A DNA stretch of 32,000 nt, from contig CP104013.1 of assembly GCA_025839675.1 (NCBI GenBank), forward strand, positions 5,340,001-5,372,000. The letters run 5' to 3'. Position numbers and translations under genes: made by a program. Shown here piece by piece: positions 2,567-30,432 of the stretch; within the stretch, counting starts at the first letter, position 1, and each line of letters begins with the position of its first letter. The notes under the pieces are model-generated. The model saw only the letters and a program-made list of their open reading frames with translations. It was not told where the DNA came from and did no database searches. The DNA comes from Candidatus Lokiarchaeum ossiferum. Its GTDB lineage: Archaea > Asgardarchaeota > Lokiarchaeia > Sigyniarchaeales > Promethearchaeaceae.

Positions 2567-3217
2567 TTACATATCTAACTCTTTTTTGAGTTTTTCAATT
2601 TCATCCTTGAGTTGATCCTTGGATCGTAAATTACTGTCAGGTTCTTCATCATCGTATAACGACATACTTTCTATTCGAGGTTCTGGAGTATCTGGCAATT
2701 GACCAGCATCTTCTAGCATGAGTTCAGTTTCCAATTGGGAAAGTTCATCATCAATATCTACACCCATATCCATTTCTGGATCCCCTGCAAATAGTTCACC
2801 TGCTTCATTAATTTGGTCGATGCTATCTTCTGCTTCTTCGGTTATTTCTAAAGCTCGCTCAGCATTAACTGTCACTGCAACATCTTTTAATTCAGTTGCG
2901 GAAGCTTCCATTGTTCCTGCAACATCTTTTATCACGCCTGCTTGTTCTAAAGCATCAAGATGCCGTTCGCTACGCATGATCATTGCATTATATTGCAATA
3001 CTTTTTGCTGATATTGCTTGTAACGAATGAGCATTGTCTTTGAGGCTTGCTTATTTCCTGCTTTGAGAAATTTTTTTGCTTTGACTTTGCATAATTGAGC
3101 TTTATTCTCATAATCCTTGATTTTGAGGTCTAATTTATGAGTTAACGTCTTAAGACGGGCTTCAGTGGTAAGCTTGTCCTTCTTTTTATCCTTTGGGAAG
3201 AGTTTCTTAAATACCAT
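2567..3217 (-). CDS. ESCRT-III subunit, Snf7 family (Vps20/32/60, CHMP4-like)
   Basis: The basic N-terminal helical hairpin contains AKKFLKAGNKQASKTMLIRYK (compare yeast Snf7 ARIFLTKGNKVMAKNALKKKK). It continues with MRSERHLDALEQAG and then an acidic half (DIDDELSQLETELMLEDAG) ending in a terminal amphipathic helix. ATG at 3217 (MVFKKLFPK) is preferred over TTG at 3229. Confidence 0.85.
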   Translation of the reverse strand: MVFKKLFPKDKKKDKLTTEARLKTLTHKLDLKIKDYENKAQLCKVKAKKFLKAGNKQASKTMLIRYKQYQQKVLQYNAMIMRSERHLDALEQAGVIKDVAGTMEASATELKDVAVTVNAERALEITEEAEDSIDQINEAGELFAGDPEMDMGVDIDDELSQLETELMLEDAGQLPDTPEPRIESMSLYDDEEPDSNLRSKDQLKDEIEKLKKELDM

Positions 3218-3308
3218 AATTGGTTTCAACTATATTATATTATAATAAAAAGGTAGCAATTGGAACTTTAATAGTTTTAGGAGGCCAAAAATTTTCCGTG
3301 GATTAGCC

Positions 3309-3947
3309 CTAATTCAAGGCTTTGTCGCGACAATAATCTTTGATCGCTTCTATTCCCTCTTCAAGAATATCAATTTCTTTAGTGGGTAAATTGCAATTAT
3401 CCATCCTGATTTGAACAAGAGATTCATAGCGATGAAGATTTTCTAATTCAAAAATGGGATTATTTGATAAATTTAAAGATTTTAAATGAGAAAACGCACA
3501 ATCTGGTATTTTTGTGATATTGTTATATGATAAGTCCAAAAATTCCAAATTTTTTAATAATCCAAGTTCATAATATGATTCTAATTGGTTTTCAGATAAA
3601 TTTAAAGAGATTAATTTAGTCAAAGAAATCATTTGTTCTAAAGCAGACGATTTGAGCTGGTTTCCACTGAGATTTATAATTGTTGCATTTTGGCATCCAT
3701 CAATATTGCGGAGTTTTTTTATCCGGTTAGAAGGAACTTGAATTTTATTAAGGTGGGGAAAATTCCCAAACTGTCTGGGAATTAAGGCCAATCCAACAGA
3801 AATTAATTGTATTTCAATCACATGTCCATTTGAAACGCTATAATTGAATCCGAAAGAATTATCTAATATATTCATTATGCTTTGAATACTGCGCCTTTCG
3901 TTGACGTCTTTGATTAACTTCAATTTTAATTTGGGATTGAAAAACAT
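3309..3947 (-). CDS. leucine-rich repeat (LRR) protein, SDS22-like 22-residue repeats
   Basis: About 6 consecutive LxxLxLxxNxL units, e.g. LISLNLSENQLESYYELGLLKN / LEFLDLSYNNITKIPDCAFSH / LKSLNLSNNPIFELENL. The track start is TTG at 3956; ATG at 3947. Confidence 0.85.
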   Translation of the reverse strand: MFFNPKLKLKLIKDVNERRSIQSIMNILDNSFGFNYSVSNGHVIEIQLISVGLALIPRQFGNFPHLNKIQVPSNRIKKLRNIDGCQNATIINLSGNQLKSSALEQMISLTKLISLNLSENQLESYYELGLLKNLEFLDLSYNNITKIPDCAFSHLKSLNLSNNPIFELENLHRYESLVQIRMDNCNLPTKEIDILEEGIEAIKDYCRDKALN

Positions 3948-4259
3948 CTCGCTCAATTTGATTTTATGTTTATTACTTTTATAATTTGCTTATCACTTTT
4001 CATCAAGAGATTCAGACAGAACATAATACTAAGGACTGCAGATCCAAACCAAAATTTTCATTAATGAATTCTACAATTAATGGTTTAGGTGTCCTAAATA
4101 AAAAGGTCAACTTTATATGTTGCTTCTTTTTCGAAATAGAGCACCCCATGGTATCCTCACTCACTGACAAGAATATGGACTATCTTGGAAAATCCGTTTT
4201 ATCCTAATTTTGAAAAAAAATGAGATAAAATTTTTAACCAGATTTAGTTTCAAAGAGAC

Positions 4260-7301: not shown

Positions 7302-8507
7302 TTGTGGAAAGAAGTTGAAAAATTCGAAAAAAGTGGAGACACTGACAAACTTATTAAGGTGTCTGTATCAGATCTAATAGAAATTCGCGAGAACTTAATT
7401 GATTTCGAATGGAAAGCTATTAAGTATGAAAAGAAAATATCAGAACTTTCTAAGAACCAAACTTCTGAAATGAAAATTAGGTCAGAAAAACAAGATGAAG
7501 CTTTAAATCTAGTGAAACAGAAAGAAATTGATGAACTTAAAAGAATGATTGAGGATAAAACTCAACTTATTGATACTCTAAATCAAAAAATATATTTTTT
7601 AAGCACAGTTGTAGAGATTGATCAAATAGGTGTATCTGATCAAGGTGCCCACATTGCTATAGATACGGAAATTCGAGAGCGGGATGCTGAAATAATAAAA
7701 TTGCAGAATATTATTTCGGATTTGGAACTTAATAATCGTTCAAAAGATCTCAGTTCCCTTGAAATTCAATTAGAAAAATTAAAGAAAGATGCTCAGACTC
7801 AAATTGAAATTTTAGAATTGAAAAATCAAGAATTATTTAATGCTAAATCTTTGGTGGAATCTCAGCTTGAGAAGATAAAAAAAGATATTCAAGTTCAAGC
7901 AGAAATCCTAGAATTCAAAAATCAAGAATTAGTTGATGCTGAAACAAAAATTAAATCTCAAAAAGCAGAGTTTAATCAAGCATTGATTGAATTTGATGAA
8001 GAAAGAAAGAGAATGGTTCATGATCTTGCTTTGCAGAAAGAATCTTCAAGTACTGAGCAGAATATGCAAAAATCCGCAATGAAAAAGATTGAAACAGAAA
8101 ATAATTTGTTACAAGACAAAATTATTCAAAAAGATTTGAAAATTGAGGAGCTAAATCGTGTTGTTACTAAGTTCAAATTTCAGACTCATTCTGTAGATCT
8201 TACTGAAATGGCCAAAAAAGATGAAATGATTGCTCAGCTGAAAATTAGTTTGAAAAAGGCAGAATATAAATATAACGAAAGTCGAAGAAAAATTGAAAAG
8301 TCTCAAATTCAGCAATCCCATGTATCTAAATTAAGACAAAATGCAGTATGTCCTGCAAAACGTAATCAGATCATTTCTAAATCGAAAGAAAATGATCCAT
8401 CGATAGCCTTGTTTCAACAAGAATACACAAGTATGGTTCGGAAAACTAAGCAGATGAAAGGAATATTTCAGCAAGATGGTCAATCCAATAACTCCGCTTT
8501 TAAATAG
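7302..8507 (+). CDS. coiled-coil protein, unknown function, with an internal 32-aa tandem duplication
   Basis: Heptad-like K/E/Q/L-rich sequence throughout. The only in-frame start near the 5' end is TTG at 7302, so the start is uncertain. T8 at 8540-8547 follows the stop. Confidence 0.6.
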   Translation: MWKEVEKFEKSGDTDKLIKVSVSDLIEIRENLIDFEWKAIKYEKKISELSKNQTSEMKIRSEKQDEALNLVKQKEIDELKRMIEDKTQLIDTLNQKIYFLSTVVEIDQIGVSDQGAHIAIDTEIRERDAEIIKLQNIISDLELNNRSKDLSSLEIQLEKLKKDAQTQIEILELKNQELFNAKSLVESQLEKIKKDIQVQAEILEFKNQELVDAETKIKSQKAEFNQALIEFDEERKRMVHDLALQKESSSTEQNMQKSAMKKIETENNLLQDKIIQKDLKIEELNRVVTKFKFQTHSVDLTEMAKKDEMIAQLKISLKKAEYKYNESRRKIEKSQIQQSHVSKLRQNAVCPAKRNQIISKSKENDPSIALFQQEYTSMVRKTKQMKGIFQQDGQSNNSAFK

Positions 8508-9425: not shown

Positions 9426-10889
9426 CTAAAATACATTTGCTATTTTCAATTTGATCATCTGTTCCGCAGAAAGATCTGTAAATCCTTTTGATTCCATCAT
9501 TTCGATAAAAGATATTGATACATCATGAATCAGCATCTCCTGTATTTGCTGTAAGGTAATAGAGGTAAATTTATTTTTCATTTTTCTTACAAATGATGGT
9601 GTAGCATTGTGAATACAAAGTTTTTTTGCTTCAATTAGTTGGAAAGTAAATTCTAATTCTTTCAATTGTTTCAGGAAGTCAATACTCACATTATGAATTG
9701 CACATCTTTGAATTTCTTCTAATGTAGAACTGGGGAAACCTAATTCTCTAATGTTTCTGATATAATCCAGAGAAACATCATGAATACGGAGATTTATTAA
9801 ATCTTCAGTTGATATATTCGTGTATCCCATATCAAAAATACCTTGAATAAAATCTACTGAAACTCCATGAATGCACATTTTTACAAATGAATTAGCACTA
9901 ATATCTGAAAAACCGAATTTGTACATTTTTTTGACCAGTTCTGGGGTGCATCCATGTATTGAAAAGTCGATATATCGATTTATTGTGAGATCTTTAAATC
10001 CAACTTCATGAAATTTGGCGATATATTCTGGAGTTACATTGTGGATTGCCATTTTTTTCAAATTTGATAATGAAATATCAGTAAACCCTAAATCCTTCAA
10101 TTTGAAAAATGTTTCCATCTTTACATTATGAATTCTTAATTTCTTAATCTCAGAAAATTCAATATTTTCAAATCCTGCTTCTTTCAGTTGTCCAATGAAG
10201 GTAGGTTCAATTGAAAAGTTTTCTGCATCAATTAGATCTGTGATGCTTAGTTCTCCAACTCCTGATGCTTTCAGTGCCCTAACTTTTTCTGGGTTAACAT
10301 TATGTATACGCATTTTAACAATTTGATTCGGAGTTGGCTGATACCCAAGATCATTCAATTCATGAATATACTGTGGGGTCACATCATGAATCTGGAACTT
10401 CACTATTTGGGATGTAGTTAAATCAAATCCCAATTCAATCCATTTTTGAATAATTGCACTTTTAACCCCATGGATAGAGAATTTAACAAGTTCATCAAGT
10501 GAGATTGTTTTATATCCGAGATTATGGATTTCTTGTATGTATTCTAAACGAACTTGATGAATTATTGATTTCACCATTAAATCATCTGAAATATTAGTGT
10601 ATCCAAAACTATTCAAACCTTCTTTATATTCTGGTTTGACATGTTTAAGGATTAATTCCTTAATTATAGATAACGTTAATTCCGTTCGTTCTAAATTTTT
10701 TATCTCAACATAAAACTCTGCAGTTACAAAATCACTTACATTGTTGATCAAATTTTCAAATGATTCTCCTTGAAAATTTCGGCTTTGAAGGTATTCACGA
10801 TCCAGCACACGTAGTGCTTTCTCTGCATCTTCTGGTGAAATTTCTCCTGAAGCGACCTTTCCTAAAATATCTAATCTATTTTGTTCCAT
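9426..10889 (-). CDS. tandem-repeat protein, about 13 x 28-29 aa 'IH[NDG]V...G[FY]' units, unknown function
   Basis: Repeats are read directly, e.g. IHGVKSAIIQKWIELGFDLTTSQIVKFQ / IHDVTPQYIHELNDLGYQPTPNQIVKMR / IHNVTPEYIAKFHEVGFKDLTINRYIDFS. The N-terminal LGKVASGEISPEDAEKALRVL is a SHOCT-like helix. Confidence 0.75.
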   Translation of the reverse strand: MEQNRLDILGKVASGEISPEDAEKALRVLDREYLQSRNFQGESFENLINNVSDFVTAEFYVEIKNLERTELTLSIIKELILKHVKPEYKEGLNSFGYTNISDDLMVKSIIHQVRLEYIQEIHNLGYKTISLDELVKFSIHGVKSAIIQKWIELGFDLTTSQIVKFQIHDVTPQYIHELNDLGYQPTPNQIVKMRIHNVNPEKVRALKASGVGELSITDLIDAENFSIEPTFIGQLKEAGFENIEFSEIKKLRIHNVKMETFFKLKDLGFTDISLSNLKKMAIHNVTPEYIAKFHEVGFKDLTINRYIDFSIHGCTPELVKKMYKFGFSDISANSFVKMCIHGVSVDFIQGIFDMGYTNISTEDLINLRIHDVSLDYIRNIRELGFPSSTLEEIQRCAIHNVSIDFLKQLKELEFTFQLIEAKKLCIHNATPSFVRKMKNKFTSITLQQIQEMLIHDVSISFIEMMESKGFTDLSAEQMIKLKIANVF

Positions 10890-12785: not shown

Positions 12786-13099
12786 TCATTTTCATCATAT
12801 TATCAAGAAATAATTTTTCTATTCATTTTTTTTTGAAGTTTTAATTGATATTTTCAAAAAAAGAGTCAAATCTTCAAATAATAATGTGGGAATAGAAATA
12901 TTTCCTAAAGCTTTATAATTTTTTGAGAAAATTTCTATCCTATCAATATGTTTTGATCAAAATTTTGGAAAATACTATGTACTTTTTTGCTAATGTTCCA
13001 AATTCATATTAAATTAATTCAAATCGAAACAAATTATTCTTAATTTTCACGGGAAATCTAATAAAATACATTTAAATTATTCAATCGCCTTTTTTGAGT

Positions 13100-13999
13100 A
13101 TGGGAATTTTTAGTTTACTTAGAAGAAAAACTAAACAAAAATCCGTATTTTTAGGATTGGATAATTCGGGAAAATCCACAATCATATCCTTTTTGAAAGA
13201 AGGTAAATTTGTCGAACATACTCCAACAATGGGAAAAGATTTGCAGAAATTGGAAATCGATGGGACCCGGTTTTTGTTGTTCGATATGGGAGGGCAATCA
13301 CATTTTAGAAAAATGTGGACTGGTGAAATGAAAGATTCAAAATGTGTAGTTTTCGTAATTGATGCTGCTGATCCTGATCGTTTTAATGAATCTAAATCCG
13401 AATTACAAAAAGTTTTACCTTTAATTGCTGGAAAAGATATGAAATTACTAATTCTTGCTAATAAGTCTGATAAACGTAATGCAATACCTTTAGATCAACT
13501 CATTGATATTTTCGAACTTAGTAATCTTCCAAATTTTGAAATAATGTCCATTTCTGCCAAAACTGGACTAAATATGGCTGATGCTTTTGTGAAATTCTAT
13601 TCGTTATTAACAGGAAAAATGTTAAAAAAAAATACAGTGACTCAAGCAATCTCTATTTTTGATCCAAGCGGTCTTCCCATAATTACTCGATCCAAATCAG
13701 ATCATGATGATAGAGATATATTGGAAGGTGGTTTTATAACTGCAATTACTCATTTTGGTAAAATGAAAAATAATGCAAATTGTATCAAATTCGAAAGTGA
13801 AAATGATGGTGTTTATGTCATAAAAAGAACAGAGAATTATATTGGGGCTTTATTATGGGATGAAAATTTGGACATTCCAATTGATGATACTGAAAGTGCC
13901 TTGGATGATCTTTTAAATCATTTAGAATCTTCTCTCAAGTTTAAAGATCACGAAGAAGTTGCATATTATGTAAGTCAGTATTGCACAAACATGATATAA
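13100..13999 (+). CDS. Arf/Sar-family small GTPase with an extra C-terminal domain of about 115 aa (Roadblock/longin-like by pattern)
   Basis: G1 is VFLGLDNSGKSTI (Sar1: LFLGLDNAGKTTL). G2 is TPTMG, G3 is LFDMGGQ, G4 is NKSD and G5 is SAK. VVFVIDAADPDRFNESKSEL matches Sar1 IVFLVDAADPERFDEARVEL. The N-terminus is MGIFSLLRRK. Residues from about 183 to the end form an additional alpha/beta module. The track start is TTG at 13094; ATG at 13100. Confidence 0.9.
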   Translation: MGIFSLLRRKTKQKSVFLGLDNSGKSTIISFLKEGKFVEHTPTMGKDLQKLEIDGTRFLLFDMGGQSHFRKMWTGEMKDSKCVVFVIDAADPDRFNESKSELQKVLPLIAGKDMKLLILANKSDKRNAIPLDQLIDIFELSNLPNFEIMSISAKTGLNMADAFVKFYSLLTGKMLKKNTVTQAISIFDPSGLPIITRSKSDHDDRDILEGGFITAITHFGKMKNNANCIKFESENDGVYVIKRTENYIGALLWDENLDIPIDDTESALDDLLNHLESSLKFKDHEEVAYYVSQYCTNMI

Positions 14000-14063
14000 T
14001 GTAAATAAGGCTAAAATTTCATCTTTTTTTTATAAATGATCAATATCAATAAGGTAAAACATT

Positions 14064-14564
14064 ATGGCAATGCTAATTTCAAAATCGATAATTACAAGTT
14101 TAGGTGGATATAGTGGTTCTAATCCAAAAATTCTTAAAGTTTTCCCCAGTTCTCCAGATTTACTCAATGAAGATGTTTTAGAAATATGTTTACCCACAGG
14201 AGCTGTGCCAAATGAATTCTTTTTAAAGGAATATCAAAAAACTAAAATTTTGATTTATACCTTTGAAATCGAAAAGGAAGAAGAACGTAATGATTTAGGA
14301 TCCATTAGTTTTGGAATTGGATCAGAAGTTGAAGTAAATAATCTGAAATCTATGATTTTATTAATTTTTAATTTTCTCAGAAGAAATAATATTCTTTCAT
14401 TTCTAATTTTAGAAAATGCTATGCCTGAAATGATAGATGCTTTAAATAACGAGGGTAAAATTCAATTTACTGATTCATATTGTATGGATATCAAGCGAGA
14501 ACTTAAAGCAAATAACATTAAGTTAGAGAAAGTAAGTAGGAAACGTAGAGGTGGAATGATTTAG
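14064..14564 (+). CDS. soluble 166-aa protein, unknown function
   Basis: ORF with no hydrophobic segments. Its stop TAG overlaps the GTG start of the next gene by 1 nt (TAGTG). No family is recognised with confidence. Confidence 0.6.
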   Translation: MAMLISKSIITSLGGYSGSNPKILKVFPSSPDLLNEDVLEICLPTGAVPNEFFLKEYQKTKILIYTFEIEKEEERNDLGSISFGIGSEVEVNNLKSMILLIFNFLRRNNILSFLILENAMPEMIDALNNEGKIQFTDSYCMDIKRELKANNIKLEKVSRKRRGGMI

Positions 14565-15217
14565 TGGCTACTTTTGAAATTGTCGTCAGGAACATATCTT
14601 CTATTTTAGGTTTACTTATATTACTCTTGCTACTAGTATTCCTTTATTTTAGGAATTTTAAGGATTTTAAAGAGTATGGTGAATGGAATTGGACACGGGT
14701 AGTTCTTTCTTTAGGAATTTTCATTAATTTCCTTGATCGACTTTTGTTTGTGATATTTTACATCTTTGATTGGAAATTTACCACAGATAGCATGATGGCG
14801 GATTCAATTTATGCCGAACCGTATTTATCTTATCTTGGTATTTTGAAAGGATATCTTGTTGTATTTGGGGCATTTTATGTGTTATATTTAAATCAGAAGG
14901 ATGAAATGTTAATTGCTCCAGTATTGCTTTATTCAGGTGCTCTAGTGCTATATTATACTGCCCAAGTCATCTTATATCATTATATCTTTATTTTTTGTGC
15001 AGGTGTAATCACTTTATTCCTTTTAAATGAGGCTGGATGGAGTATGAAAGATAATAATGCAATGGGCCTAGGTCTAATGTACGTTTTCATTTTTATTGGA
15101 GGAGTTATACCAAATGCGGTTGTTTCAAATATAATTCGTTTAGTCGCTTATCTTATTGGATTCACAATCATAACTGGAATATTCAAGATATTTAAAAACA
15201 AAGAGGAAGAAGAATAA
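14564..15217 (+). CDS. integral membrane protein, about 7 hydrophobic segments, unknown function (paralog A)
   Basis: Seven hydrophobic stretches by eye and a charged C-terminal tail, KNKEEEE. The GTG start overlaps the upstream stop, and its own stop overlaps the next ATG (TAATG). Confidence 0.7.
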   Translation: MATFEIVVRNISSILGLLILLLLLVFLYFRNFKDFKEYGEWNWTRVVLSLGIFINFLDRLLFVIFYIFDWKFTTDSMMADSIYAEPYLSYLGILKGYLVVFGAFYVLYLNQKDEMLIAPVLLYSGALVLYYTAQVILYHYIFIFCAGVITLFLLNEAGWSMKDNNAMGLGLMYVFIFIGGVIPNAVVSNIIRLVAYLIGFTIITGIFKIFKNKEEEE

Positions 15218-15879
15218 TGGTTTCAGAACAGATTTTAATGTTTGTAGAAATAGGAAATTCGCTATTTGGTTTTATTGGGATCTACTTAGCAATTAAACAG
15301 TGGAAAAAGTATAAAAATCCTGCTGATATATTCGTAGTATTAATAAACCTTCTTGCAGTTGGAGCTGTATTATTTTCAGCGTTCACATTCTTACTTATTG
15401 GGTATTTTCCAGAAATCAATCTTGCTTTCAAGATAGGTAATCTTCCTATTGAGTGGATCTTTAAGATCGGGATAAGTATGATGTATATGATATTCATGGT
15501 ATATCTGTTAGAATGGAAATTTCTTTATACTGTGCCCTTCATTGTTGGGTTATACTTTTTCTTATATGGATTTCATACTGGAAATGAAAATATCCTCAAT
15601 ATTTATCTTGGGACAATAATTTTTTCGGCTATATGGTTGATTTATAATGCAATCAAGAATAGGAGTGGATTATCTTTAGGGCTTTTTATTGTAGCTGTTT
15701 TTTATGCTATTAGTACCCTTATTAGTGATTTTCTATTTTTATACTATTTATTCCGATATTTAATGTCTATTTCACTGATTCTTGGAATTAATGGATGGTT
15801 TGAAGAAAAAATACTATATAACCGAAAAGAAGAAAAGAAAATCCAAAATACATGGATTGCTCGAGCCACCAGATCTTAA
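15217..15879 (+). CDS. integral membrane protein, about 7 hydrophobic segments, unknown function (paralog B)
   Basis: Similar length (220 vs 217 aa) and topology to paralog A. Both share a K-rich loop after TM1, an [DE]WKF motif, a GLxLGL motif and a charged tail, NRKEEKK. Confidence 0.7.
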   Translation: MVSEQILMFVEIGNSLFGFIGIYLAIKQWKKYKNPADIFVVLINLLAVGAVLFSAFTFLLIGYFPEINLAFKIGNLPIEWIFKIGISMMYMIFMVYLLEWKFLYTVPFIVGLYFFLYGFHTGNENILNIYLGTIIFSAIWLIYNAIKNRSGLSLGLFIVAVFYAISTLISDFLFLYYLFRYLMSISLILGINGWFEEKILYNRKEEKKIQNTWIARATRS

Positions 15880-16058: not shown

Positions 16059-16520
16059 TTAATTTGGACTAATTTTATCCAAATCTGACAAATCCAATCC
16101 TGCACCAATATCTTCAGGCATTTCTGATAAGAATTCGTCTAAAATATTACGTAATTCATCTCCAGATCGTTTTAATACAAGGCGAATTAACCCCAAGTTG
16201 ACATCAACATCAGAGATTAAACATAGTACCCCTTTCCCACAAGAAGCAGCAAAAATCTTCCCTCCTTCAAATTCAGAAGTGACGATCTGTAATGCTCCTA
16301 ATTCTAAATTTCTTCCTTGTTCTTCTGATGCGCAGAAAACTGCACTTGCGATGGCTCCAATGCCATCAACATCCATTGGAATATATGAGAACTTGGAAAC
16401 ATGAGCAATTGTTAAACCGGTTCGATCAACCAAAATGACCTTTTTGATACCGGATTCGGATTTAATAATTTTACTGAGGATTACATTAAATGATTTAGTT
16501 GAAAGTGCCATAATTTTCAT
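16059..16520 (-). CDS. Roadblock/LC7 (MglB-like) domain protein
   Basis: GIKKVILVDRTGLTIAHV...GAIASAVFCASEEQGRNLELGALQIVTSEFEGGKIFAASCGKGVLCLISDVDVNLGLIRLVLKR matches the Robl_LC7 pattern (xxVxlvDxdGlxia ... ANlGlvr). It also has an acidic C-terminal tail. Confidence 0.85.
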   Translation of the reverse strand: MKIMALSTKSFNVILSKIIKSESGIKKVILVDRTGLTIAHVSKFSYIPMDVDGIGAIASAVFCASEEQGRNLELGALQIVTSEFEGGKIFAASCGKGVLCLISDVDVNLGLIRLVLKRSGDELRNILDEFLSEMPEDIGAGLDLSDLDKISPN

Positions 16521-24192: not shown

Positions 24193-25593
24193 TTATTGCA
24201 TAGAAATAGAATATTTTGGATTGAAATAGATGATCAATTCCTTATGTTTAAAGACGGGCAATATTTTATCCTTAGCATATTCCAAGTATACTTTGATTTC
24301 AAGAGTATCATCAATTAGTTTCTCTTCAAATTTAATCAAAATTTCCCCAAATCCATACATGTTCCCAATCATATTCGAAAAATTCCAATAAGCTTCTCCC
24401 AAATTTGATGACGATGAATTCAAATATGCAATTTTAATGTTGAAAAAGGAAGTTTGGTTGATCAATTTGATCTTTGATGGGTTACTCGCAATATTTTCAA
24501 TTGTAAAGTTTCCAGATGTCCATCTTTCTCTCGGAATACTATCCCAATATGACATCGTTCCGCATATTCGAATTGGTTTGAAACATGGTACAACCTTGAT
24601 GTAACACTTTGAATCAAGTGAATTCAAAGAAAAATAGATGTTATCGGCATTTGGGGATGTAGATTTTTTGGTGGTATAATAATTGCTTCCATTTTTATTG
24701 AGGAAACCTGTAGGTGTGACTAATTTAAAATGTTCTTCTGTGATTTGAGAGGAAATAATAAAATTTGTTGATTGATTAGGTGCCCAATATCTGGCTTCTA
24801 TAATTCCACCATTTTCCAATAATACTTCCACATTATTTTTCTTTTCAAAGTGAGAAGCCCATCGAAAATCTAAAAGTTTTTCAGATTTAGTTTTAACTTC
24901 AAAAATTGCTGGGTTTTTAAAAAGAATATTCCATGAATCACTTGATATTGCTCCTGTCGATGACTCGCAAAAAATGTTTTGAGAAAAGTTAATAAAATCC
25001 ATAAAAAGGTTGATATTTCCTTGTTTTGAAGAACATATTAAATCAGAATGGATTGAACATTGTTCAAGGTTAAGATTAATATCACCTGAAGAAGATTGTA
25101 TGTCAAAAATCGCGAATGATGCGTTTTTTGCTTGAATTTTGAAATTTCCTGCTTTTGAATTACTTCCAATGGAGTAGTTTTCATAACAAGGATCAATATA
25201 AACCGTGAAATCACAAAAAATTAGTTCTTGAATCGGAGAAATCAACTTGTTTTTGCGAGAGATACTAATTATTAAAGTATCCTTATCAATTTTTTCAGAA
25301 AAAATTAGTTCTAAGGGATATCTCGTTGATTTTTGACTATATGTTATATTCCAGTTTGCTTCATAGATATTTTTGGTTGCATTTGGTATGATTTTAATGT
25401 TAACATCTATATCTGATGCGAGGTAATTTAATTCTACATTTTTGAATTTTCCAATATCTGATGTTTCTAATTTATATGTTCCAAAATAATCTTGCTTAGT
25501 CAAAAATTCTGATGTAATCACAACAAAACTTGTTGTAGAAATGAGGAATGAACTAATCAGAATCAAAACTTTCATATTTTTTTTCATTTTCAT
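24193..25593 (-). CDS. secreted or membrane-anchored beta-rich protein with an internal domain duplication (possible DUF4097-like adhesin core)
   Basis: The N-terminal MKMKKNMKVLILISSFLISTTSFVVI is a signal or anchor sequence. There are many NxS/T sequons. The central part holds SSSGDINLN / SKQGNINLF / SSTGAISSD repeats. The start is uncertain: the track has TTG at 25644, and several ATGs lie between 25626 and 25575. Confidence 0.6.
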   Translation of the reverse strand: MKMKKNMKVLILISSFLISTTSFVVITSEFLTKQDYFGTYKLETSDIGKFKNVELNYLASDIDVNIKIIPNATKNIYEANWNITYSQKSTRYPLELIFSEKIDKDTLIISISRKNKLISPIQELIFCDFTVYIDPCYENYSIGSNSKAGNFKIQAKNASFAIFDIQSSSGDINLNLEQCSIHSDLICSSKQGNINLFMDFINFSQNIFCESSTGAISSDSWNILFKNPAIFEVKTKSEKLLDFRWASHFEKKNNVEVLLENGGIIEARYWAPNQSTNFIISSQITEEHFKLVTPTGFLNKNGSNYYTTKKSTSPNADNIYFSLNSLDSKCYIKVVPCFKPIRICGTMSYWDSIPRERWTSGNFTIENIASNPSKIKLINQTSFFNIKIAYLNSSSSNLGEAYWNFSNMIGNMYGFGEILIKFEEKLIDDTLEIKVYLEYAKDKILPVFKHKELIIYFNPKYSISMQ

Positions 25594-25802
25594 TTTTCTC
25601 AATAAATTTATATAGTGAACTTTCATTTTTATATTTTCACACAATTTGGGATTTGATGTAATTAGAAAAAATGATTTTTTAAATATATTCTACTAGTGCA
25701 TTATATGATTAAATTGAACAAAAATGAAAATTAGGCCAAAAGGATTAAAAAAATTATCAAGTTGCTAGAAAAAGTGTAAGAATTGCTGAATTTAAAAAAA
25801 AC

Positions 25803-27062
25803 CTAATTGGGAATCATTACTTTTAATTTTATATCTTCAAAGGTTTCTTCACATACCATTTTTTGTAATTCATTTCTATCATTTCCGACTTTTTCAAGTA
25901 ACTCTTTGAATTCTCTTTTTCTACGATTTAAATCGTTTTCAAAATGTTCAAAATCTATTGTCAATGTAGCTATTTTATCTTTTAATTCGTTTCGTTTCTG
26001 TTCCAAACCTTTCTTTTCAAGAATCTTCTTGCATTCCGCTTTTTCATCTCGTATTTGGATTATTTCTTTGATATTTTCTTCCAAAGAATTTTCACTTACA
26101 ATCTGATTAATATTCTCAATTATTCGTTCACGTAAATCTGATTTTAATTTAAGTGGATCATGTTCATCTTCTAACATTAATCTTGTTTTAATTAAAATTT
26201 GTCTTAATTGGGGGATTTTTGGGCCATCATTAATTATATTTGTTACTGGTGATTTAATATATGCTTTAATTTGATCTGGTCGCATTTCTCGTGCTCTGAT
26301 GCTTCCTTTTTCTAATCCTTTGAGTAATTTTTTAAATGCTTTCTTGAATTTTAAAGAATCAGAAAGTTGTGTTGATTTTGATTGTTCTAAAGTCTCAATC
26401 CTTTCAAGATTTTGTAAATCTGGATCTTTACTTAAATTAAATAAACTTTCTTCCATCTCTTTAAGTTTATCACTCATTTGTATTTTTTCTTGATCTAAGG
26501 CTTCAATTTTGGATTTTGTGGTTCCTAACCTTTCAATATTATTATTTAGTAATGGAATTTTTTTCAATAGTCCTTCAGCATTTTTTCCATCTTGATAATT
26601 TTTTAGCATGTATTTGTTAACTTTTGCACTGATGTTCCCCATTTTTCGAAGGTGCATATCAATTTCTTTAATTTCAATCTTGTATGCTTTTCCAAATCGA
26701 GGGATACTCTTTTTGCCTTGATTATTATATATTCCATAGACTTTTTTTATGCCATCGATGAAATTCATTGAGTTTTCGTAGGTTATATCAACATGGACGG
26801 TCGGAATTTTAACTGATTCCAGTGTTTCGACAACATTATCAATAAAACGTTCCATAATTGATTGATTTTTTGGATCAAGTGGTTCTTCTTCATTTGCTAA
26901 CGTTCTTTGGGTCCATGTGCGCAAAGATGTTCTTGCTTCTGCCATTTCACGTTCTGCGTTACTGAATAACTTAGTAAGGAGTTTATGTTGTTTTTTAAAC
27001 CGCGTTTGCAGCGATTTTAGATACCATTCTTCAAGCTCATCAAGTGGGATTTCGGTGGACAT
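25803..27062 (-). CDS. helical/coiled-coil protein, unknown function (about 420 aa)
   Basis: Long ORF, K/E/L-rich with heptad-like stretches, especially in the C-terminal 120 aa. The track start is TTG at 27068; ATG at 27062. Confidence 0.6.
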   Translation of the reverse strand: MSTEIPLDELEEWYLKSLQTRFKKQHKLLTKLFSNAEREMAEARTSLRTWTQRTLANEEEPLDPKNQSIMERFIDNVVETLESVKIPTVHVDITYENSMNFIDGIKKVYGIYNNQGKKSIPRFGKAYKIEIKEIDMHLRKMGNISAKVNKYMLKNYQDGKNAEGLLKKIPLLNNNIERLGTTKSKIEALDQEKIQMSDKLKEMEESLFNLSKDPDLQNLERIETLEQSKSTQLSDSLKFKKAFKKLLKGLEKGSIRAREMRPDQIKAYIKSPVTNIINDGPKIPQLRQILIKTRLMLEDEHDPLKLKSDLRERIIENINQIVSENSLEENIKEIIQIRDEKAECKKILEKKGLEQKRNELKDKIATLTIDFEHFENDLNRRKREFKELLEKVGNDRNELQKMVCEETFEDIKLKVMIPN

Positions 27063-27174
27063 TTTCAATTACTAGTAAAGAAAGGTCGGATCTTTAAAAA
27101 TTTTTAAGCACAATTAGTACAAGACAATGAAGGTAGTGAGTGAAAAAAGATTGTGAAAAATATGTTCTAAGTGG

Positions 27175-28929
27175 TTAACTTGATTTTTGGCTATTTTTTA
27201 ACATCAAATTTCTTAGTGCTTCCATGTCTATTCCCAAATATCCTTCTTTGGAATAAAGGGGTGATCTTATTGACTCCATTGCTTTCTCTTCATCAGAAAT
27301 AAAGAAAATTCCTTTTTTCAAAAAATCATCAAAATAGGTTGCAAATTTCATCCGATCTACTGTTAAATTTTCTGCAGTTGGTTCATCATATAATTTAATT
27401 AATGGCATTTCCTTTGTATCTGCTTTCATCCCTTTCATCCCTGCAAATAATCCTCCTAGTGTGGCGATAAATGGGAGTTGATGTGCAATGTGATTCATAG
27501 ATAGTAATGCTTGAATATTTTTAGCGGAAAGAGAATCCGTTAATAAATCAATATTGAATCCAAAGCAAGCTTTAAAATGAGTTTTTACCTTTTTCTCAAC
27601 TTCTTTAGTGAATTTTCTGAATGTTTCGGGACTTTCTTCAACATTTTTTTTAAGAAGTTTATCAAACCCTTTAGATTCTATAATTTTTAAAAATGCTTTT
27701 CCATCTTTAATTCCCATTTGGACAAGTGTCGCCCAAATTTTATTTTTCTCTTCATTTTTTTGATAAGTTAAAAGGAGAACATTTTCAAAATATTCGATAA
27801 CAGTGCGAAATGCTTGATTGAAGTTCCCTATTCCTGGTCCTAATTGTAGTCCAAATAATTTTAAAAATGAGTTCAGAAGAGAATCCGGATACCAAGTTGT
27901 ACTATATGCCAACTCAAAGCAAAATGTAAAAATATCAAATAAGTCATTACTTGGATCATTGCATTTTTCAAGAAATTCAAAAATTTCACTTTCATCTATA
28001 ACCTGAGTTCTTAAACCTGTTTTGTTATGTATTTTTTCTGCTATTTGGATTAATGGCAATTCTATATTGTAAAATTCTTTAAACAATATATTTGGAAGTG
28101 GATTTACGCTTAATCGATGATTACTAATTATGAATTTTAATCCAATGAGTGGTTTTTTTCTCTTTTTTGAATAAATGATCAAATTTTCGATTGAATCATC
28201 ATACAATGTTGTTAAAATTCTTGCCCATTGTTCAAAATCAACATTTTTCATTCTTTTTACGCTTTTTTCCACATTTTTAAACGAAAGATTGTATGAAAAT
28301 TGAGAAAGAACATAATTCATTTTTGATTTTTTCTTTTTTCCTAAATATTGAAAAACGTTCTTTAGATCCACTAGTTCTTTAATTGTACTCAAAGCATCAT
28401 GATTGAAGTCCGGAATAATTTTGGATATAATCCTTTTATAATTTATAGGAAGTATTATACTTCGAGATGTCGCTATACTATAATTTTTCTCAAGAAAATC
28501 CTTAATAAGTTCTTGGATTGGTTCATAATTATCTAAATGGGATTGTAAATTTGTAAAAAAATCTTGAAAATTATCAGATTTATCTATAAACTTAATTGAT
28601 AATTGAAGAAATGATTGTAATTTTCCTAAATTGTCTAATTCCTCAATAAATTCTGTTGTAATTTCACAAAAATCCAAAATTTGTAAATTATCATCCACTA
28701 TTACAAATGATATTGACGAAAAAGGGTGATGTGAGTAATAGTTTTCAATTAGAAAATAAATTTGATGGAGATCCCATCTTAATGGCAATCCTGCCATTAT
28801 TTCAGGAGGAATTGAAATTTTCTCAATAGGGTTTATAGCTATTTTGTTAATATAATTAATCAATTCTTCAAAACTTTCCCGAAACAGTGAGACGGAATTT
28901 TTCTCGGAGTTCTGTGAAACTTCATTCAT
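27175..28929 (-). CDS. large hypothetical protein (584 aa), predominantly helical, unknown function
   Basis: Uninterrupted 584-codon ORF with an ATG start, lying 106 nt upstream of 25803..27062 on the same strand. No motif recognised. Confidence 0.6.
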   Translation of the reverse strand: MNEVSQNSEKNSVSLFRESFEELINYINKIAINPIEKISIPPEIMAGLPLRWDLHQIYFLIENYYSHHPFSSISFVIVDDNLQILDFCEITTEFIEELDNLGKLQSFLQLSIKFIDKSDNFQDFFTNLQSHLDNYEPIQELIKDFLEKNYSIATSRSIILPINYKRIISKIIPDFNHDALSTIKELVDLKNVFQYLGKKKKSKMNYVLSQFSYNLSFKNVEKSVKRMKNVDFEQWARILTTLYDDSIENLIIYSKKRKKPLIGLKFIISNHRLSVNPLPNILFKEFYNIELPLIQIAEKIHNKTGLRTQVIDESEIFEFLEKCNDPSNDLFDIFTFCFELAYSTTWYPDSLLNSFLKLFGLQLGPGIGNFNQAFRTVIEYFENVLLLTYQKNEEKNKIWATLVQMGIKDGKAFLKIIESKGFDKLLKKNVEESPETFRKFTKEVEKKVKTHFKACFGFNIDLLTDSLSAKNIQALLSMNHIAHQLPFIATLGGLFAGMKGMKADTKEMPLIKLYDEPTAENLTVDRMKFATYFDDFLKKGIFFISDEEKAMESIRSPLYSKEGYLGIDMEALRNLMLKNSQKSS

Positions 28930-29133
28930 TAGTAAACCTCTTTTTGAGAAACATTAAAAAGATTTTTTCACAAATTCACCAAAAATTGAAAAAAGTAACA
29001 AATTTTGAATGGAAATGGATAAATTTTGATAAAAAGTTAGAAAATAACATTTAGAATAGACAAAATCTAATTCTATTTTCTTAATTTAAACAGAAATTTT
29101 TTTATCAATTGTTTGTTATAGGTTAAATTGAGT

Positions 29134-30432
29134 ATGGAAAGAGCAAAAATATTTGATAATCTACCTAACTTGGAAACTGTTTTGGAACTTTATATAAATT
29201 TGTGTGGTAAACCGGAACCGGAGGAAGAAGAAGAAGCACAAAAGAATTTGGTCCCTATTTTTAATCAATGGCTTGAAAATATTAAGGAAAATGATGGGTA
29301 TTATTCTGATATTCAAGAAATTTATAATATGATTAGCAATTGGGATACTTTGGAAAGTTGGTTCTTTGAAATTCCTTTCTTGAAACAGAAATTGGGGGAA
29401 TTTTTATTGATTTTTTATCCAAAAAATGAACAATTAAATCAAATTTTTGCGCCAGTTGATAAAAAACCAAATGAAAATAATATTGTTCATACCGAAGAAT
29501 CATTTCAAAAAAGTGATTTGAAGGCACCTATTGTTGATCTTGACAGTAACTCCGTACAAGATGTAAAAAAAAATACATTAGAGCTGAATTTTCAAAAGCA
29601 AATTCTTACTAATTCGATCGATGTTGAAAAACAAACAAAAATTGAAAAAAGACTACAAGAAATGGAGAAAAGGATGGCCGATTTAATGGAAAAAGAAGGA
29701 AGGGTCAAAGTCGAAGACCAAATTAAACCTTCTCCTCCTCTAAATGAAATGCCCCAAATTCAACAATATGATAGCGATACAAAATTACATCCACCGAAAT
29801 TCAATATTCCAAATGTTCCGAAGCCTAAGAAAAAAGTTACTCCAAATAACAATAACATCATCCCAGACATTACAGAAATTTCAAAAGAACAAAAAAAACT
29901 CCCTATTCCAATTAAAATAACTCCTCAAGTTCCATTTACACCTGAAGAAGAGAATATAATTGATATTAATGATAATGAAGGAGATTCAAAATATAAAATA
30001 CAGAATATCGAAACAAATATCTCTATTCAAAATTCTCCTGAAATTGTACCCCTACAATACGTTCCTTCATCAAAAAATAATATATCTTCTAATGCAATTC
30101 GAATCACTAATATCGATGTTTCATCTCATATCATCCGTCCTGAGCAAGATCTGAATCAAAATATCTCCCCTAAAATCGAACAGATAAAGTATTTAGATAA
30201 CAAATTAGAAAACGAAAATCTAATTGAATCTTCAATTGATGTTTTCAAAGAAATTATTTCCTTAGAGTCAAAAAAATATTACCTTGAACAACAGATGAAA
30301 GAACTGGAAAAAAACGTTTCTGGGGGTTTAATGTCTGCTGAAAATTATCAACTTCAAATTTCGAAATATAATTCTGAATTATTTAATTTTTCAACTCACA
30401 TTGAAAAATTACGTTCAAAGATTCTTGATTAA
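29134..30432 (+). CDS. hypothetical protein: helical N-domain, long P/N/I-rich low-complexity linker, C-terminal coiled coil
   Basis: The three-part composition is visible in the translation. The track start is TTG at 29128; ATG at 29134 (MERAKIF). Confidence 0.6.
   Translation: MERAKIFDNLPNLETVLELYINLCGKPEPEEEEEAQKNLVPIFNQWLENIKENDGYYSDIQEIYNMISNWDTLESWFFEIPFLKQKLGEFLLIFYPKNEQLNQIFAPVDKKPNENNIVHTEESFQKSDLKAPIVDLDSNSVQDVKKNTLELNFQKQILTNSIDVEKQTKIEKRLQEMEKRMADLMEKEGRVKVEDQIKPSPPLNEMPQIQQYDSDTKLHPPKFNIPNVPKPKKKVTPNNNNIIPDITEISKEQKKLPIPIKITPQVPFTPEEENIIDINDNEGDSKYKIQNIETNISIQNSPEIVPLQYVPSSKNNISSNAIRITNIDVSSHIIRPEQDLNQNISPKIEQIKYLDNKLENENLIESSIDVFKEIISLESKKYYLEQQMKELEKNVSGGLMSAENYQLQISKYNSELFNFSTHIEKLRSKILD

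Follow-up and report, generated by a model that had tools for sequence, protein, structure and literature searches.

The 32,000-nucleotide stretch of contig CP104013.1 of Candidatus Lokiarchaeum ossiferum analysed here (positions 5,340,001 to 5,372,000; hereafter the window) encodes a small GTPase in which an ArfR/Arf-type G domain is joined directly to a C-terminal domain of predicted longin order. At related loci, the gene is strictly linked to three others, one for a soluble protein and two for membrane proteins. The fused protein probably acts as a membrane GTP/GDP switch that regulates the linked membrane proteins. The native role of Asgard Arf-family GTPases is an open question, and the four-gene module represents a fresh lead, since its strict linkage names concrete candidate partners of such a GTPase in an organism, L. 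ossiferum, that is cultured.

The GTPase gene and its family

The gene is a frame of 299 codons that runs from an ATG at 13100 to a TAA ending at 13999, with 0 internal stops in the six-frame list of open reading frames (ORFs). The same list allows an alternative upstream TTG start at 13094; the ATG is the likely start because 37 of 49 aligned homologues begin with MG. A TATA-like element, TTTAAATT, is located about 25 bp 5' of the gene, a position that would be compatible with an archaeal transcript whose leader is short or absent. The product matches entry UYP48256.1 (Candidatus Lokiarchaeum ossiferum) with 100% identity, and the low G+C content of the window, approximately 30%, is in keeping with this organism. 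The GenBank/RefSeq name of this entry, 'GTPase Der', is a misannotation, as the NCBIfam Der model scores only 28.6 bits against a cut-off of 306.7.

A protein search recovered about 85 further full-length relatives of 296-310 amino acids (aa), with 40-91% identity, from Promethearchaeota/Lokiarchaeia, Hodarchaeota, Sigynarchaeota and one mis-binned 'Bathyarchaeota' metagenome-assembled genome. In addition, a scan of species-representative genomes located 28 Asgard loci with the GTPase, Hermodarchaeota among them. Residue conservation was scored on the alignment of the 49 homologues, in which the linker between the two domains is conserved as LTGxxIKK. The two-domain GTPase is thus a discrete family of about 300-aa proteins across several Asgard lineages, with full-length members in Loki-, Hod-, Hermod-, Sigyn- and Helarchaeota.

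These data also settle a concern raised in a preliminary description of this DNA, which had recognised the uninterrupted 299-aa frame and had considered that two adjacent genes might have been joined in it, whether by faulty sequencing or assembly or because a stop near codon 180 had been missed. Standalone proteins of the C-terminal type occur elsewhere, in keeping with such an artefact. The frame is nevertheless continuous, the linker is conserved, the source is a 6.0-Mb contig, and the same length and domain order recur in the homologues from independent assemblies and at the 28 loci. The two domains therefore form a genuine fusion that is under selection, and an artefactual join is refuted by this conservation.

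A G domain of ArfR/Arf type by sequence comparison

The Pfam Arf model matches residues 6-164 with an E-value of 9.3e-37 and 126.6 bits (cut-off 22.3), in agreement with the Arf/Sar-like assignment of the preliminary description. Lower scores are obtained with Ras (49.8 bits) and SRPRB (29.7 bits, cut-off 25), Roc scores far lower than Arf, and Gtr1_RagA gives no Pfam match at E <= 0.1. The motifs pointed out previously are all present, namely GLDNSGKST (19-27), DMGGQ (62-66), NKSD (121-124), SAK (152-154), VIDAADPDRF and the N-terminal MGIFSLLRRK. The residues of the G motifs, T43 and Q66 included, are invariant among the 49 homologues; the catalytic Gln66 and all nucleotide-binding and switch motifs are intact. 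The protein likewise carries the Arf-type pattern GLDxxGK(T/S), PT(I/M)G, (W/F)DxGGQ, RxxW and NKxD.

In a search of PDB sequences, the first matches are the Asgard GerdArfR1 entries 8OUN/8OUM (E 2e-28), followed by ARF5, ARL3 and SAR1 (about 1e-23). Foldseek with the full model returns the same ranking (8OUM at a TM-score of 0.85 and 35% identity), and the Asgard ArfR structure 8OUK is also found among the top PDB matches, before Arf, Arl and Sar1. The BLASTP alignment with human ARF1 is gapless from residue 3 to residue 143, the ARF1 numbering being higher by 5 (K25=K30, T43=T48, D62=D67, Q66=Q71, W73=W78), and the spacing from switch I to switch II is therefore as in Arf.

Asgard small GTPases have been split into ArfR, ArfL, RagGtr, RasL and MglA, of which ArfR is the sister group of eukaryotic Arf/SRβ (Vargová et al., bioRxiv 10.1101/2024.02.28.582541; Nat Microbiol 2025). 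Against ten reference sequences, with labels taken from Table S3 of that work, phmmer gives 78-101 bits for ArfR, 81 for human ARF1, 39-42 for ArfL and 18-42 for RagGtr. In a small neighbour-joining tree with 100 bootstraps, the GTPase family, RagGtr and ArfL are each monophyletic (100, 94 and 100 replicates, respectively); the family groups with ArfR and ARF1 in only 45 replicates, with ArfL in 6 and with RagGtr in 1. On these sequence comparisons, the G domain is concluded to be of ArfR/Arf type and not of Rag type.

A C-terminal domain of predicted longin order

AlphaFold2 (AF2) was fed with the alignment of 49 sequences, and secondary structure was assigned by DSSP. The full-length GTPase is modelled with a predicted local distance difference test score (pLDDT) of 87.2 and a predicted template modelling score (pTM) of 0.84. 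The C-terminal domain packs against the G domain in the model, and a pTM this high would imply that they are held in a defined arrangement. From the end of the G-domain helix α5 (159-171) up to β1 the model is free of helix, after which the elements follow one another as ββαβββαα (Table 1); the same order appears when the domain is modelled alone (pLDDT 81). The β/α segments proposed in the preliminary description match these elements, with helix α3 (284-297) missed, and its proviso that the region might be disordered or of an unrelated fold is not borne out by the model. Conserved positions of the domain include G191, P193, G210-G211-F212, W253, H274-L275-E276, Y294 and N297, and the homologue alignment contains no conserved Arg in it.

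The order ββαβββαα is that of longin domains. Roadblock domains, including the C-terminal domains of Rag/Gtr, reportedly run αββαβββ(α). The structural comparison of the isolated domain by Foldseek gives a corresponding picture, with longin folds superposing best at TM-scores of 0.57-0.62 over 113-124 columns. These matches comprise AP2 σ2 (6owo_S, 0.61), ζ-COP (5mc7, 0.60), COPI (9qpq_L, 0.62) and the N-terminal domain of AP2 μ (7og1, 0.62), all at a Foldseek probability of 1.00, with AP3 σ also among the best. The E-values are modest, 4e-4 to 4e-3 for the four entries listed and 4e-4 to 5e-3 over all matches of the domain. Roadblock folds reach 0.34-0.56, most of them 0.34-0.52 and two Ragulator chains 0.55-0.56. 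They include MK-D1 Roadblock2/3, LC7, MglB, LAMTOR subunits and the Gtr1 C-terminal domain (0.42).

At the level of sequence, neither residues 165-299 of the GTPase nor the C-terminal domain searched alone has a Pfam match, Robl_LC7 included, and a profile of the C-terminal-domain family finds chance-level matches only among PDB sequences. An exhaustive profile search of 1.84 billion representatives returned 56 relatives only, consisting of the GTPase family itself, other proteins with an Arf G domain plus this C-terminal domain, and standalone proteins of 130-165 aa. Below threshold, Fuz_longin_1 is matched by the relative P0171 at 24.7 bits (cut-off 26.1) and by the C-terminal domain of NHI93820.1 at 18.5 bits; P0171 also has a sub-threshold match to Robl_LC7 (21 bits, cut-off 23), and the NHI93820.1 domain one to Clat_adaptor_s (16.1 bits). 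Judged by its model, the C-terminal domain is of longin order, belongs to Roadblock/longin only at the level of the superfamily, and is not a Rag-type Roadblock. The earlier prediction of a Roadblock/longin platform was thus right as to a structured member of the superfamily in residues 183-299 and wrong as to Roadblock itself.

The standalone proteins of C-terminal type are P0124, P0128, P0130 and P0140-P0143. P0124 starts with GFLDGLKKK, which is like the N-terminal motif of the GTPase, and runs straight into the longin-type domain without a G domain. With the profile of the C-terminal domain, hhalign detected no relationship to the family of the 166-aa neighbour (probability 0.3%) or to the Roadblock protein encoded at 16059-16520 (0.6%).

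According to a different explanation, advanced in the preliminary description, the protein has a Rag/Gtr-type architecture, in which a G domain is followed by a dimerising Roadblock C-terminal domain, and represents an evolutionary intermediate between Arf and Rag. The domain order is indeed alike, the C-terminal domain lies in the same fold superfamily, and Gtr1/Rag C-terminal domains and LAMTOR/MglB Roadblocks are among its fold matches; longins, however, superpose better, and the domain has the longin order without an N-terminal helix. In Foldseek, the full model is matched over about 300 columns with 8YL2, a solved RagA-like GTPase of Lokiarchaeota, but at 19-20% identity and a root-mean-square deviation of about 10 Å. 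Some homologues have weak precomputed Pfam matches to Gtr1_RagA, and a paralogue scores 22 bits, whereas the phmmer scores against RagGtr and the single bootstrap replicate in which the family joins RagGtr point away from that group. Moreover, the G4 motif is NKSD, while labelled Asgard RagGtr proteins have HKYD, HKID, HKCD or HKSD, and the alignment with ARF1 is gapless through switch II, where the GTPase-Roadblock class of MK-D1 has inserts (PMC10933270). What stands of the proposal is the resemblance in domain order; the GTPase is not an Arf-Rag intermediate that bears on the divergence of these families, and a Rag-type architecture is unlikely. No paper on the two-domain 'LokiRagO' structure 8YL2 was found in the literature searched.

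The N-terminal segment

In the N-terminal motif MGIFSLLRRKTKQK, which begins with MGIFSLLRRK, a polybasic stretch comes after a short cluster of hydrophobic residues, and the consensus of the 49 homologues is MGxFxxxxRKTxxK. Over residues 2-12, the hydrophobicity H is 0.29, the hydrophobic moment µH is 0.50 and the net charge is +4. A scan for hydrophobic segments finds no N-terminal transmembrane (TM) anchor in the GTPase. Membrane binding by this candidate amphipathic segment would be plausible.

A conserved four-gene module

In the window, the GTPase gene (G) is followed by X, encoding the soluble 166-aa protein NEF87_004542, and by TM1 and TM2, encoding membrane proteins with about six TM segments each (Table 1). 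The start of TM1 overlaps the stop of X. None of the three has a Pfam family or a PDB sequence match, and their homologues are exclusively Asgard 'hypothetical proteins'; for X, 23 of these are available. TM1 and TM2 are paralogous to one another (hhalign probability 90.5%, E 1.4e-6, 128 columns).

Three divergent homologues of the GTPase have the same three genes on their 3' side, on the same strand and with overlapping or near-touching ends. The products measure 166-178, 209-229 and 220-311 aa, and each aligns with its counterpart in the window. Hidden Markov models (HMMs) of the four families were then run on all ORFs of 32 Asgard loci, and all four genes are present at every locus with enough flank. 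The order is G-X-TM1-TM2 in the window and in L001-L012, L017 and L026, and X-TM1-TM2-G in L014-L032, where an unrelated flavin adenine dinucleotide (FAD) oxidoreductase gene lies 5' of the module. Duplications of the whole module, as tandem or inverted copies, occur in L005, L006, L013 and L027. The linkage is seen across Loki-, Hod-, Hermod- and Sigynarchaeota. P0029 and P0034 mark a duplication of the module on one 14-kb Hodarchaeota contig.

The 166-aa protein is a candidate regulator or adaptor. Its invariant residues include G15, S19, P21, P44, R75 and D77, and a conserved G-x-x-G-S-x-P segment precedes its second hydrophobic stretch. Longin GTPase-activating proteins (GAPs) have been described with a 'GP motif plus Arg finger' (PMC12290439), a pair of motifs that the G-x-x-G-S-x-P segment and the invariant Arg75/Asp77 may loosely recall. 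The family, searched with 21 members, has no Pfam match of longin or DENN type. Compared with the N-terminal GP-motif region of a labelled ArfR, it gives an hhalign probability of 12.5% (E 0.002), which is too weak to call; that ArfR region itself has no Pfam longin match and is longin-like by motif only.

Some orthologues of TM2 (L002 7162-8091 and L003 7178-8014) are extended at the C-terminus by about 90 aa, a Cys-rich tail in which the residues are spaced as CPxC...CxH, possibly a zinc-ribbon; the window copy is without this tail. At 180 bp past the module, at 16059-16520 on the minus strand, lies a gene whose 153-aa product belongs to Roadblock/LC7 (Pfam E 2e-9) and gives a weak match of MglB-like type in NCBIfam. 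It was rejected as a partner of the module, as no homologue of it is found near the module in the other 32 loci.

Table 1. Positions of the GTPase gene, its parts, the linked genes and further ORFs in the window.
Feature	Position	Strand	Remarks
ArfR-type GTPase gene with C-terminal longin-type domain	13100..13999	+	complete; 299 aa; UYP48256.1
N-terminal motif MGIFSLLRRKTKQK	13100..13141	+	residues 1-14; candidate membrane-binding amphipathic segment
Arf-family G domain	13139..13615	+	residues 14-172; Pfam Arf; G1-G5 intact
K46	13235-13237	+	matches ARF1 F51
E76	13325-13327	+	matches ARF1 Y81
Linker	13616..13645	+	residues 173-182; between G-domain α5 and β1; no helix (DSSP, AF2 model)
C-terminal longin-type domain	13646..13996	+	residues 183-299, about 117 aa; ββαβββαα (predicted)
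β1	residues 183-187		AF2
β2	residues 193-198		AF2
α1	residues 205-221		AF2
β3	residues 228-233		AF2
β4	residues 237-243		AF2
β5	residues 248-253		AF2
α2	residues 261-278		AF2
α3	residues 284-297		AF2
Neighbour 1 (X)	14064..14564	+	soluble 166-aa protein NEF87_004542; candidate regulator/adaptor
Neighbour 2 (TM1)	14564..15217	+	217-aa membrane protein, about 6 TM segments
Neighbour 3 (TM2)	15217..15879	+	220-aa membrane protein NEF87_004544, about 6 TM segments
ORF without Pfam match	7302-8507	+	
ORF without Pfam match	9426-10889	-	
ORF without Pfam match	24193-25644	-	
ORF without Pfam match	25803-27068	-	
ORF without Pfam match	27175-28929	-	
ORF without Pfam match	29128-30432	+	

A proposed membrane switch

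Longin and Roadblock domains, usually as dimers, are platforms that bind small GTPases. They act as guanine nucleotide exchange factors (GEFs) in Mon1-Ccz1, TRAPP and DENN, as GAPs in MglB, FLCN-FNIP, GATOR1 and C9orf72-SMCR8, and as scaffolds in Ragulator and the Rag C-terminal domains. The longin domain of SRX is said to bind the Arf-like SRβ in its GTP form. The proposal made here for the GTPase follows from this general behaviour of longin/Roadblock folds. The protein would be a GTP/GDP switch at the cell membrane, held there by its short N-terminus, hydrophobic and then polybasic, and by the two TM proteins. The built-in longin domain would replace the separate longin/Roadblock proteins on which other small GTPases depend. 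This platform could contact the G domain, pair with a further longin-like subunit, which might be another copy of itself or the 166-aa neighbour, or do both, and the pairing would control the nucleotide state or present the active GTPase to its partners. The 166-aa protein would be the obvious candidate for a docked regulator. The presumed target is the TM1/TM2 pair, and the output would be the regulation of whatever those proteins do. In this general form, an ArfR-type membrane switch with a fused longin domain, acting on the linked membrane proteins, is the probable function of the GTPase.

Several observations weigh against this proposal or parts of it. A position of the G domain within ArfR is not firmly supported by the small neighbour-joining tree, in which the family groups with ArfR and ARF1 in only 45 of 100 replicates. 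Two positions of the Arf effector triad are changed, F51 of ARF1 being replaced by an invariant K46 and Y81 by a nearly invariant E76. Arf-like effector binding thus cannot be assumed for the GTPase, and a K46-E76 salt bridge may take the place of the hydrophobic patch. The candidate N-terminal segment, of about 11 residues, is shorter than the Arf1 helix, its hydrophobic moment is not above that of shuffled sequences (15% of shuffles reach it), and residues 1-9 are disordered in the AF2 model (pLDDT < 50). The C-terminal domain is unlikely to be an arginine-finger GAP alone, because it has no conserved Arg.

Further points concern the module. A 64-bp gap follows the GTPase gene (13997-14063) and contains a T8 run and then a TATA-like TTTTATAAAT about 25 bp before the next ATG, which look like archaeal terminator-like and promoter-like signals. 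Furthermore, the GTPase gene sits on either side of the X-TM1-TM2 block. This gap and the variable position suggest that X-TM1-TM2 is a core operon and that the GTPase gene is an adjacent, separately transcribed partner. In addition, gene linkage alone does not prove an interaction between the GTPase and its neighbours.

An Arf-family GTPase that works at a membrane with a longin domain is also known in SRβ-SRX, and the fused protein might be a single-chain device of that kind, with the TM proteins as a receptor or translocation component. The Pfam SRPRB score above its cut-off, the longin fold of SRX that binds SRβ-GTP, and the strict linkage to membrane-protein genes are consistent with this explanation, as is the nesting of SRβ among ArfR/Arf described by Vargová et al. 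The SRPRB score is, however, far below that of the Arf model, and SRX is not in the top 50 fold matches of the C-terminal domain. SRβ-SRX consists of two chains, in which SRβ has a TM anchor and SRX is part of SRα with its NG GTPase domain; the GTPase of the window has no N-terminal TM anchor, no SRα-like NG domain is linked to it, and the TM proteins show no similarity to a known translocon or receptor in Pfam or the PDB. An SRβ-SRX-like device is accordingly very unlikely.

The proposed membrane switch can also be extended into a more specific form, in which the four genes encode one native ArfR machine. There, the longin domain and the 166-aa protein, itself maybe longin-like with the invariant Arg75, would make a heterodimeric GAP or GEF platform of the FLCN-FNIP, GATOR1, C9orf72-SMCR8 or Mon1-Ccz1 kind, placed on a TM1/TM2 heterodimer. 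This version is speculative and rather unlikely as a whole. If true, a native set of regulator, membrane receptor and effector would be identified for the first time for a GTPase of the Asgard Arf family, and eukaryotic systems in which a GTPase operates with a longin platform and a polytopic membrane protein would have a prokaryotic precedent.

Relation to known GTPase systems

The closest relatives of the G domain are the Asgard ArfR or 'AArf' proteins with structures 8OUK-8OUN, with which it shares the P-loop GLDxxGK, the Arf switch spacing and a short N-terminus of MG, hydrophobic and basic residues; GerdArfR1 is the nearest of them. Those ArfRs that have been characterised consist of one domain, with 160-220 aa, the multi-domain ones having been left out of the analysis, whereas the family in the window adds a C-terminal domain of about 117 aa, K46/E76 and a fixed gene neighbourhood. 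Gene neighbourhoods are not discussed in either ArfR paper (Vargová et al.; Zhu et al. 2025, PMC11914678), and the native regulators of Asgard Arfs are still to be established according to Zhu et al. Confirmation of the module would place an archaeal relative of Arf in its native functional context for the first time.

The joining of a small GTPase to a platform domain is a principle that the family shares with other fusions in Lokiarchaeia. Longin/Roadblock fusions to Arf-like and Rag-like GTPases of Asgard archaea have been reported since 2016, by Klinger et al. as cited in Dey, Thattai and Baum (PMC4917890). In MK-D1, the architectures G, LG, LGR, GR, RG and GXLX have been distinguished, and one class with a Rag-like structure is close to Arf and annotated as such (Tran et al. 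2024, PMC10933270). Some Asgard Arfs also bear additional domains, longin being one example (PMC11914678). The LG, LGR, GR, RG and GXLX classes of MK-D1 have Rag-like G domains, in contrast to the ArfR-type G domain followed by a longin-order domain described here; no member of the GTPase family was found in the MK-D1 alignments, although this is weak evidence, the text having been derived by optical character recognition. In the GC14_75 Lokiarchaeum, the ArfL protein KKK45962 and the single ArfR KKK44255 carry their extra sequence at the N-terminus.

Within Table S3 of Vargová et al., the searched part contains no member of the exact family. The ArfR entry NHI93820.1 has the same layout: it aligns to the GTPase across both domains (31% identity over 286 aa), and the HMM of the C-terminal domain matches it with E 5e-13 in a search against the ten reference sequences. 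With this entry and the fusions published in the three papers cited above, the architecture is not novel, and the contrast that the preliminary description drew with single-domain eukaryotic Arf/Sar proteins was misplaced, the protein being archaeal. The Asgard GTPase-longin fusion is of a known kind, and the fusion itself adds little. An ArfR subfamily with a direct C-terminal domain of longin order is not characterised in the literature examined. The same table lists three adjacent ArfR entries of Helarchaeales SZ_4_bin10.384; one of the three has an N-terminal 'HPIKGP' GP motif, and two, NHI93820.1 and NHI93821.1, are extended at the C-terminus. The arrangement points to clusters of multi-domain ArfR genes in further Asgard lineages.

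The function of Rag proteins relies on the C-terminal platform for dimerisation and for docking to a membrane scaffold. In eukaryotic Rag/Gtr as in the present family, the G domain precedes a C-terminal α/β platform that belongs to the longin/Roadblock superfamily. The two differ in that the Rag C-terminal domains are ordered αββαβββα and that the Rag G domains carry HKxD and cluster separately from the window family. The element order of the C-terminal domain is shared with the longins of σ/μ-adaptin and ζ-COP and with the first longin domain of Mon1/Fuz/HPS1. Identity to these longins is only 9-16%, and they are separate coat or GEF subunits that are not fused to a GTPase.

Other genes of the window

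The window further contains six ORFs of 400-585 aa without a Pfam match (Table 1). On the minus strand, at 2567-3229 and 3309-3956, a gene for an ESCRT-III/Snf7-family protein (Pfam Snf7, E 4e-13) adjoins one for a leucine-rich-repeat (LRR) protein (LRR_8, E 3e-19). Snf7-family and LRR genes are of the eukaryote-signature type and are typical of Asgard genomes.

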